A stretch of 64,000 bases of DNA from a virus. Lineage: Duplodnaviria > Heunggongvirae > Uroviricota > Caudoviricetes. The stretch is taken from IMG/VR virus record IMGVR_UViG_3300031759_000002; one strand, given 5' to 3'. Positions 57,159 through 58,142 of the stretch are shown piece by piece. How positions within the stretch are numbered: position 1 is the first letter of the stretch; every line of letters starts with the position of its first letter. Under the pieces are notes generated by a model. That model made no database searches. It was not told the DNA's origin and worked only from the letters and a program-made list of their open reading frames with translations. A program made the position numbers and the translations under genes.

Positions 57159-57477
57159 AATACCATTCATATTATGGTTGGTATGCGAACATTGTAATAA
57201 TAGAACTGTTTTGTTTAAAGATATAGATGATACAGAATCTAAATGTGCCAATGGAAATTGTGAGAAAATATCCAAATTAGACAGAGAAGCAAAGTTTAAT
57301 GCCTATATCAATTTTTTAGAATCGGAATATCTTGACTTGAAGAAAAAATCTGATATACTTCCTCCAGTATTTGTTAAGAATACCCATTTATGTAAAACTA
57401 AAACCGGTTGGAGAATGGTATTAAATACCAAAGATTCCATACAATGGGCATTAACTCAGAATATTAACGATTTATGA
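57148..57477 (+). CDS. hypothetical Cys-rich protein (CEHCNN...CANGNCE)
   Basis: ORF overlapping both neighbours by 4 to 11 nt. Confidence 0.3.
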   Translation: MKNKIPFILWLVCEHCNNRTVLFKDIDDTESKCANGNCEKISKLDREAKFNAYINFLESEYLDLKKKSDILPPVFVKNTHLCKTKTGWRMVLNTKDSIQWALTQNINDL

Positions 57478-58142
57478 CACAACCAGAAAAAATTAAACAT
57501 ATCCGAGACATTACAATGTCTCCTTATAATAAAATCAATGTTGCATTGGAAACCTCCGGTGGAGATGTAGAAAAAGCAATAGATTTTCTAATTAAAGAAA
57601 AGCAAACCGATACTACTGATATGGCAAACCGAGTAGCCAATGCTGGCATTGTATATTCTTACATTCATAATCACAAAGTTGGCGCAATGATTGTATTGGC
57701 TTGTCAAACTGATTTCGTGGCAAAAAATGAAACATTTGTCAATTTAGCCAAGGACATTTGTATGCATATATGTTCCACTCCAATTACTCCTACTTCTATA
57801 AGTAAAGATGAAATTAAACCGGAAGAAATTAACCATATTAAACAGGATGTATTTTCCACTAATAAAAATAAACCGGGAAATATTATTGATAAAATTATAG
57901 AGGGTAAAATTGGAAAATATATATCTGATTATTGTCTGATGAATCAAAAGTTTGTCAAGGATGATAAGATTACTATTGGACAATTGGTTCAATCGGCTGC
58001 TTCTACATTGGGAGAGAAGATTGCTATTAAACAATTCATTAAAATGAAAAATGATATTGGATATGTTAGGCTCAATTCCGATGGGTCTGTTGATATGAAT
58101 AAAGGTATTAGACCGGAATATACAGTTACCAGTTTAAATTGA
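57474..58142 (+). CDS. tsf: elongation factor Ts (EF-Ts) homologue, short form
   Basis: N-terminal UBA-like NVALETSGGDVEKAIDFL. LACQTDFVAKNETFVNLAKD matches the EF-Ts signature (N)CQTDFVAKD. ICMHICSTPITP...EEI versus IAMHVAASKP...DV. KPGNIIDKIIEGKIGKY...QKFVKDDKITIGQLV versus KPKEIAEKMVEGRMKKF...QPFVMEPSKTVGQLL. Confidence 0.7.
   Translation: MTQPEKIKHIRDITMSPYNKINVALETSGGDVEKAIDFLIKEKQTDTTDMANRVANAGIVYSYIHNHKVGAMIVLACQTDFVAKNETFVNLAKDICMHICSTPITPTSISKDEIKPEEINHIKQDVFSTNKNKPGNIIDKIIEGKIGKYISDYCLMNQKFVKDDKITIGQLVQSAASTLGEKIAIKQFIKMKNDIGYVRLNSDGSVDMNKGIRPEYTVTSLN

Follow-up and report, generated by a model that had tools for sequence, protein, structure and literature searches.

Huge phages are known to encode the elongation factors G, Tu and Ts, for which a role in maintaining translation efficiency has been proposed (Al-Shayeb et al. 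2020, PMC7162821). In the supplementary GenBank files of that study, elongation factor Ts (EF-Ts) is annotated in nine genomes, and the proteins are of several kinds: four are the products of 585-bp genes (194 aa), one is a 307-aa protein of the long type, one is a 102-aa fragment carrying at its N-terminus the signatures of the clade described below, and three are 75-84-aa proteins comprising only the N-terminal domain. Caulobacter phage Colossus encodes a truncated, 98-aa EF-Ts-like protein, gp247, which retains the conserved TDF Phe and is proposed to boost the pool of EF-Tu-GTP (PMC3556154). Here we describe a gene at 57474..58142 of a 64,000-nucleotide stretch of the IMG/VR virus record IMGVR_UViG_3300031759_000002 (Caudoviricetes), the whole of which is referred to as the window. 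It is a real, full-length EF-Ts of the short, Thermus type, and a long-kept member of a phage-only lineage that is under purifying selection.

The original prediction of this gene, made from the DNA sequence alone, held EF-Ts to be rare among phages, an assertion that stands for deposited records and fails beyond them. A tblastn search of 50,697 deposited phage records with the window protein returned two hits, one of them genuine. The latter, in the 595-kb huge phage LR756511.1 (locus L026, 1489..1908), is a 139-aa mini EF-Ts, 24% identical, which possesses the N-terminal domain, a GTDF motif and the terminal strand, the helical middle part being missing; it seems to represent a separate, shortened type of phage EF-Ts. 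The second (OR846595.1, locus L027, 64093-67374), deposited as 'Enterococcus phage Efs 1-1-1' and marked UNVERIFIED_ORG, was rejected as a phage EF-Ts: it is a bacterial rpsB-tsf pair encoding a 293-aa long-type protein, in a stretch that looks like Enterococcus chromosomal DNA. Colossus gp247 was not picked up by this search of the 50,697 records. Outside deposited records, EF-Ts had already been reported in huge phages (PMC7162821) and is conserved in a jumbo-phage clade of at least 120 sequence clusters.

The gene and the parts of its product, all on the plus strand, are as follows.
57474..58142, plus strand: tsf-like gene, ATG start, TGA stop, 222 aa, full-length EF-Ts.
Residues 1-54, plus strand: putative TS-N/UBA-like three-helix domain, from the Thermus alignment and the model.
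Residues 55-191, plus strand: core/dimerisation domain, with TDF at 79-81.
57708..57716, plus strand: TDF codons T79-D80-F81, the conserved EF-Ts motif.
58047..58139, plus strand: C-terminal extension KNDIGYVRLNSDGSVDMNKGIRPEYTVTSLN, residues 192-222, subclade-specific.

The open reading frame (ORF) coincides exactly with the one first proposed, and the strand opposite 57474..58142 has stops throughout. Its 222-aa product scores 92.2 bits against Pfam PF00889 EF_TS (E=4.5e-26, cut-off 27) and 129.3 bits against the NCBIfam equivalog TIGR00116 'tsf' (cut-off 104.05), in both cases above the curated cut-off. It aligns end to end with EF-Ts of Thermus thermophilus, its best match in the Protein Data Bank (PDB) by phmmer (1AIP_C, from the crystallised EF-Tu/EF-Ts complex; E=1.4e-39, residues 1-191 to 1-192); in the same search the E. 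coli, M. tuberculosis and bovine mitochondrial proteins, all of the long type, score far more weakly. No family in PHROGs matched the phage EF-Ts (best E=0.14), and the clade is absent from that library. The motifs on which the original prediction had relied are all present in the translation, as ACQTDFVAKN (residues 76-85), CMHICSTP (96-103), NKPGNIIDKIIEGKIGKY (132-149) and NQKFVKDDKITIGQL (157-171), and the identification as EF-Ts, including the Pfam match that had been named as its check, is borne out. As to size, the homologous part is 191 aa with a terminal strand at 183-192, short homodimeric EF-Ts having a single core and ~195 aa. The likeness once drawn to both the Thermus and the mitochondrial proteins is accurate for the former (196 aa) and mistaken for the latter, the bovine factor (1XB2_B) having 291 aa.

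An AlphaFold model built from a 20-sequence alignment (mean pLDDT 80.1) comprises three N-terminal helices, a beta-hairpin bearing the TDF motif, a helical region and the terminal strand 183-192. The top Foldseek matches are the Thermus structures 1AIP (39% identity, TMt 0.72; E=2.5e-16 for 1AIP_H) and 1TFE, and superposition on the core/dimerisation domain of 1TFE gives TMt 0.89 and an rmsd of 1.7 A over 142 columns. Residues 1-54, corresponding to the part of EF-Ts that touches the EF-Tu G domain, align to the Thermus N-terminal domain and form three helices in the model (pLDDT 73-84); the Pfam UBA/TS-N match to this segment lies below threshold (E=0.13).

The TDF motif is invariant across the 20-sequence alignment, and QTDF is found in 119 of the 120 closest homologues; its D is present in 100% of both cellular short EF-Ts and the phage clade, and its F in 98% of the former and 99% of the latter. 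According to PMC5770160, which cites Kawashima 1996 and Schummer 2007, no other EF-Ts residue contacts EF-Tu over so large an area as Phe81, and the entry of this residue near EF-Tu His84 destabilises the binding of Mg2+ and nucleotide (GDP). Beyond this motif (T79, D80, F81), the phage protein keeps a long series of residues found in nearly all cellular short EF-Ts: R11, T14, A24, L25, A35 and L39 in the N-terminal domain, followed by R53, Y63, H65, G70, F88, H98, K133, P134, I141, G144, L155 and Q158, and, in the C-terminal part, G180, E181, I183 and F188. Mutagenesis of E. coli EF-Ts by Zhang, Spremulli and colleagues reportedly singled out R12, D80, F81, G126, H147 and M19/M20. We take the first five of these to correspond to phage R11, D80, F81, G180 and H98; M19/M20 presumably have no conserved counterpart, the phage residues there being Y18/N19. 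The phage clade also shows departures of its own. The TGAG loop of the N-terminal domain is replaced by T-[M/F/L]-[S/A]-P, which reads TMSP in the window protein; at position 17, 92% of the phage clade has P and 68% of cellular sequences have G. Further changes are C21 to I, K22 to N, A96 to C and N182 to K, the Glu preceding TDF (E78) is Gln in 100% of the clade, and two residues are inserted at 103-104.

The C-terminal extension of 31 aa is missing from both Thermus EF-Ts and the phage versions of 193-196 aa, and among the closest homologues tails are found only in P0001-P0004 and P0006. It directly follows the strand that makes the dimer interface in Thermus EF-Ts, and its pLDDT in the model is below 56. 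Compared with the 76%-identical relative, the tail has a nonsynonymous rate (dN) of 0.064 and a synonymous rate (dS) of 0.97, the dN of the core being higher at 0.19. The indication that the tail is under constraint is suggestive rather than conclusive, because it rests on 31 codons.

The separateness of the phage proteins from cellular EF-Ts is apparent from several directions. Identity to the window protein ranges over 46-76% among the 120 best database hits, most of which are 193-196 aa long, and in a neighbour-joining tree the split between these hits and 44 cellular short EF-Ts was recovered with a bootstrap of 86/100, the nearest cellular EF-Ts showing at most ~43% identity. An exhaustive HMMER search of 1.84 billion representatives at 50% identity yielded few sequences at 52-64%, mostly fragments, all others lying at or below 43%. 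The highest bit scores in that library belonged to proteins of 600-1130 aa containing two EF-Ts stretches at 30-36% identity; these were rejected as closer relatives, since their scores sum two EF-Ts copies, and we take them to be tandem-EF-Ts polyproteins of the plastid PETs type. A scan of GTDB with clade-specific peptide patterns found a single bacterial locus, in a Hydrogenedentota metagenome-assembled genome (MAG; 34% identity). By this pattern scan, which is neither a full homology census nor an identification of the donor phylum, cellular genomes all but lack the clade signatures.

Genomic contexts were inspected for the homologues P0002 (76%), P0003 (63%), P0005 (59%), P0008 (60%), P0029 (54%), P0045 (53%) and P0120 (49%), together with ten IMG/VR loci, giving only ~17 distinct contexts in all, spanning the whole range of identity. 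Every sampled context is phage-like, with small ORFs in same-strand strings on contigs of up to 245-380 kb. The identity of EF-Ts is in step with that of its neighbours: 76% in locus L006, where neighbouring proteins are 67-90% identical, and 59% in L008, where they are 42-60% identical. That EF-Ts identity tracks that of the neighbouring phage genes indicates vertical co-descent. A tblastn search with ribosomal protein S2 found no rpsB in the window or in 24 phage-clade loci; in both bacterial controls, the Hydrogenedentota MAG (L022) and the Enterococcus contig (L027), the same search placed rpsB immediately upstream of tsf. The window gene thus lacks the cellular rpsB-tsf arrangement. Its GC content, 31.7%, is near the 29.9% of the window, and an identical protein is encoded on 20 contigs from independent samples, 16 of them of 0.2-1 Mb, with the same neighbours. 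The ratio dN/dS is ~0.15 relative to the 76%-identical protein of L006 and 0.24-0.26 relative to more distant relatives, values that are upper estimates because dS is near saturation. The original prediction had left recent capture from a host to be excluded by comparison with host tsf and by base composition; the clade split, the cellular identity of at most 43% and the absence of rpsB exclude it, and the GC content agrees.

We favour the interpretation that the phage protein is a working exchange factor on host EF-Tu, sustaining elongation during infection, and would put its probability at about 0.7. The protein would be produced in the infected cell, its gene being one of a same-strand block of genes of early or nucleotide-metabolism type, would resemble the short EF-Ts of Thermus and probably form a homodimer, and would bind host EF-Tu such that Asp80 and Phe81 go in beside the nucleotide pocket. 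Faster release of GDP would allow EF-Tu-GTP-aminoacyl-tRNA to be regenerated faster, and the elongation of phage proteins could thereby be kept up when the supply of host EF-Ts drops or becomes limiting over a long jumbo-phage infection, with a presumed benefit to phage fitness. Several considerations weigh against this interpretation. EF-Ts is not usually regarded as rate-limiting in fast-growing bacteria. Affinity or specificity for EF-Tu may be altered, because the N-terminal motif that contacts EF-Tu departs from the cellular consensus (TGAG(M)M becoming T-M-S-P-Y-N). A search of the window and all the loci with an E. coli EF-Tu sequence, moreover, returned no EF-Tu gene.

The altered N-terminal loop, the tail, and a loose linkage to genes of the R2K and Thg1 families (see below) leave room for two other roles. 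In the first, which we consider unlikely, the phage EF-Ts would occupy EF-Tu as a shield or decoy against abortive-infection or toxin systems, or would titrate EF-Tu so as to throttle host translation. The Lit and Doc systems do target EF-Tu. The clade-specific changes G17P, K22N, E78Q and A96C and the insert at 103-104 could alter the kinetics of binding, a subclade-specific tail seems to be under constraint, and the surface of EF-Tu that binds EF-Ts is exploited by toxins such as Tse6 (PMC5770160). However, the inspected loci are free of defence and anti-defence genes linked to tsf, and the strict conservation of D80, F81 and the core is more easily reconciled with catalytic exchange, since a pure binder might not need it. 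Nothing in this sequence tells a shield from an enzyme. The protection of EF-Tu against abortive infection that the original prediction had entertained finds nothing in its favour in either the sequence or the gene context.

The second role, somewhat less probable again, is suggested by the gene neighbourhood and by analogy with other systems: EF-Ts might act as an accessory or specificity factor for some other phage activity that uses EF-Tu, such as that of an R2K ligase or the delivery of a phage tRNA (a CUA suppressor). The genes around tsf are as follows.
56280..57158, plus strand: R2K-clade ATP-grasp gene (Pfam R2K_2 9.5e-08, R2K_3 3.2e-06).
57148..57477, plus strand: 109-aa ORF with no Pfam family, homologues of which lie directly upstream of EF-Ts in L006, L007, L010 and L011.
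58393..59505, plus strand: 370-aa protein with a C-terminal cytidylyl/adenylyltransferase-like domain (Pfam CTP_transf_like 7.3e-09).

The ATG of tsf overlaps the stop of the 109-aa ORF (ATGA at 57474-57477), and a gap of 3 nt separates tsf from the next ORF. The R2K gene lies two genes upstream of EF-Ts and is the first of the same-strand string, after a divergent junction near 56240. A scan for sigma-70 consensus promoters and terminators around tsf gave counts at or below shuffle expectation, and because of this we claim no operon or transcription-unit boundaries; a TTGACA-17-TATATT sequence at 56210-56238 precedes the gene string and is not taken as evidence. The protein encoded at 58393..59505, whose N-terminal half of ~200 aa has no assigned family, is syntenic downstream of EF-Ts in L006 (77%) and in L008/L009 (58%). 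The neighbours common to the window and clade loci are DUF6557, the R2K ATP-grasp, the 109-aa ORF, the CTP-transferase-like protein, DUF6794, DHFR and ThyA.

Homologues of R2K recur upstream of EF-Ts, at distances of 0.7-4.5 kb, in L006, L010, L018, L019 and L020, though not in all members of the clade. The family is predicted to consist of peptide ligases that modify proteins by attaching amino acids to them, with host proteins or translation factors as targets, and CDC123, which represents it in eukaryotes, acts on eIF2-gamma, an EF-Tu-like protein (PMC4431377, PMC7824862). Genes resembling Thg1, of the tRNA-His guanylyltransferase family, lie 1-3.2 kb upstream of EF-Ts in L017, L020, L021, L023, L024 and L025, and none was found in the window. 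In L023 a SpoU gene is located 3.5 kb downstream of EF-Ts.

Translation-related genes also occur elsewhere in the window. The two companions named in the original prediction are real by profile search, namely a SpoU/TrmH methyltransferase at 1277..1840 (SpoU_methylase, E=1.8e-25) and a PTH2 gene at 27429..27827 on the minus strand (Pfam E=5.3e-25), and with the tRNA below they confirm that this phage carries other genes of this kind.
28041..28115, minus strand: tRNA with a CUA (amber-suppressor) anticodon, ~215 nt upstream of PTH2 on the same strand.

When read from the ATG at 27827, PTH2 crosses two in-frame TAG codons (27818-27816 and 27800-27798), and its first beta-strand is readable only from that ATG, through both of them; PTH2 relatives in L007 and L015 begin just before the first beta-strand and are without TAGs, and a search of IMG/VR for PTH2 relatives found none. 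To judge from these features, PTH2 looks like a case of suppressor-dependent expression of a single gene. Recoding of TAG over the whole window was considered and rejected: coding coverage is already 86% with the standard code and barely rises when TAG is read as sense, and TAG is the stop codon of 6 of the 89 window ORFs. Near the suppressor tRNA and PTH2, also on the minus strand, are calcineurin-like metallophosphoesterases (28572..29216 and 29408..30088) and a P-loop kinase of the AAA_33/KTI12/zeta-toxin type (31015..31476), which, together with an ORF at 17071..18300 that has a ligase-like C-terminus (phrog_18452), may form a set for RNA or tRNA repair.

An accessory role would find precedent in the recruitment of EF-Tu and EF-Ts as cofactors of Q-beta replicase (PDB 3MMP, 3AGP) and, according to a passage in PMC9071432, of the CdiA-CT EC869 toxin. 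It would also be in keeping with the presence of R2K in the same string as tsf, the Thg1-like enzymes near EF-Ts in other loci, and a suppressor tRNA in the same window as a PTH2 with in-frame TAGs. The linkage is loose, however: most EF-Ts loci are without R2K and the window is without Thg1, the block is generally conserved, so that closeness may reflect synteny and not function, and of an interaction with R2K or a tRNA there is no direct sign. More improbable is a combination of these ideas, in which EF-Ts would be the EF-Tu-docking part of a takeover module, its altered N-terminus and tail recruiting R2K or the phage tRNA and translation enzymes, so that EF-Tu would be covalently modified or given a new specificity, for instance a preference for phage tRNAs such as the CUA suppressor, or resistance to defences that target EF-Tu. 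That the gene is an artefact, a passenger, a decaying relic, or a recent capture or mis-assembly of a bacterial tsf, as might be suspected from the universality of EF-Ts in bacteria, the possible presence of bacterial DNA in phage records and the Enterococcus rpsB-tsf contig labelled as phage that was the other match in INPHARED (OR846595.1), is refuted by the recurrence of the identical protein among the same neighbours, its distance from cellular homologues, the lack of the upstream rpsB seen in both control loci, the phage-like GC content, the low dN/dS, and an intact reading frame with all conserved motifs.

The replicon that carries the gene is a jumbo phage of freshwater type. Its genome is ~354 kb, as represented by two contigs at JGI (353,817 and 353,739 bp) with a gene order identical to that of the window, which corresponds by coordinate offset to about 284,284-348,283 of Ga0316229_1000015. 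The assignment is made because of a phage DNA polymerase, a helicase, a clamp-loader-like AAA protein, YopX, homing endonucleases and the size of the contigs, a length near 353.8 kb having been obtained in independent assemblies. The polymerase is a T4-like enzyme of family B (PolB; phrog_262, E=3.7e-162), the best tblastn match of which is from Microcystis phage Mel-JY01 (38%), all 2,667 hits being phages; the window also encodes a PD-(D/E)XK nuclease. With relatives of the EF-Ts held in IMG/VR as well, the location of the gene in a phage, as originally proposed, is supported. Megablast of 50000..64000 against the 50,697 deposited phage records gave no match.

GC content is ~30% throughout the window. 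Genes of homing-endonuclease type are unusually dense (GIY-YIG twice, HNH, NUMOD3 and LAGLIDADG), and transposon-related genes are present.
10176..10961, 26209..26835, 31522..32388, 38088..39038 and 43957..44817: homing-endonuclease-type genes.
40645..41757 and 49772..50911, plus strand: IS605 OrfB/TnpB-type genes (phrog_506; Cas12f1-like_TNB in precomputed Pfam).
48302..48685, minus strand: Y1 transposase.

TAG, a rare stop in the window, terminates both TnpB ORFs, and GC rises to 0.37 at 40-42 kb; because of this local rise, the TnpB and Y1 elements are suggested to have arrived recently. A 424-aa protein at 44867..46141 (minus strand) matches the poly(ADP-ribose) polymerase (PARP) catalytic domain (E=7.6e-21) and the PARP regulatory domain (E=2.5e-09) as well as phrog_23333, and is thus predicted to have a eukaryote-style PARP architecture in a phage. 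A cluster at 10954..15440 (plus strand) of genes that modify sugars or small molecules, containing a glycosyltransferase (phrog_2170), a hexapeptide-repeat acyltransferase (12036..12884) and a SAM methyltransferase (14838..15440), may serve the modification of DNA or of surface glycans.

Translation factors of phages are widely listed, and an EF-Ts that is full-length, intact in its motifs and under selection is a clean candidate for a first biochemical test on host EF-Tu. The replacement of TGAG by TMSP, the Gln in place of Glu before TDF, and the tail offer concrete mutational targets. If the protein works, jumbo phages would tune elongation besides initiation and the supply of tRNA. The finding extends a kind of gene that has been reported before, and its value lies mainly in providing a well-defined experimental target.

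Four described systems are the closest to the window protein. E. coli EF-Ts, which is of the long type (1EFU_B, 282 aa), has a homologous N-terminal domain and core, and each half of its core can be aligned to the one core of the phage protein (E=7.3e-16, in two stretches); unlike it, the phage protein is without duplicated core subdomains, the coiled-coil insertion and the C-terminal module. E. coli EF-Ts also serves as a subunit of Q-beta replicase, and nothing points to an RNA-replicase role in this DNA phage. Colossus gp247 is likewise phage-encoded and keeps the Phe of TDF, but it is without the dimerisation part and other residues that contact EF-Tu, whereas the window protein is full length and has all core elements. 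Thermus thermophilus EF-Ts (1AIP chains C and H; 1TFE) shares with the phage protein a single core ending in a beta-strand, ~40% identity over residues 1-191, and the TDF, MHI and GE(N/K)I-strand motifs; the phage N-terminal segment probably forms the same three-helix TS-N domain. The phage protein differs from Thermus EF-Ts in having TMSP for TGAG, Gln for Glu before TDF, a two-residue insert after MHIxS and the 31-aa tail, and in the absence of an rpsB-tsf context. Cys190 of the Thermus protein, which forms a disulfide in the EF-Ts dimer, aligns with phage Ile189. The huge-phage proteins belong to the same phage-specific clade, as exemplified by that of GD_PHAGE_48_49 (194 aa, from one of the four 585-bp genes, the sequence of which was read), with 53% identity over 193 residues and the shared signatures T-F/M-S-P, KQ(A/T)DxxDMANR, VGAM(I/L)VLACQTDF and CMHI(V/C)STP; the window copy differs in its 31-aa tail and in residing in a ~354-kb genome of 30% GC. 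Phage EF-Ts is thus already known at the level of annotation. What is new here is that the full-length protein makes up a large clade, confined to phages, in which synteny is conserved and selection is purifying, that it has apparently undergone lineage-specific changes at an N-terminal loop predicted to face EF-Tu, and that in the subclade of the window phage it has acquired a tail that seems to be constrained.

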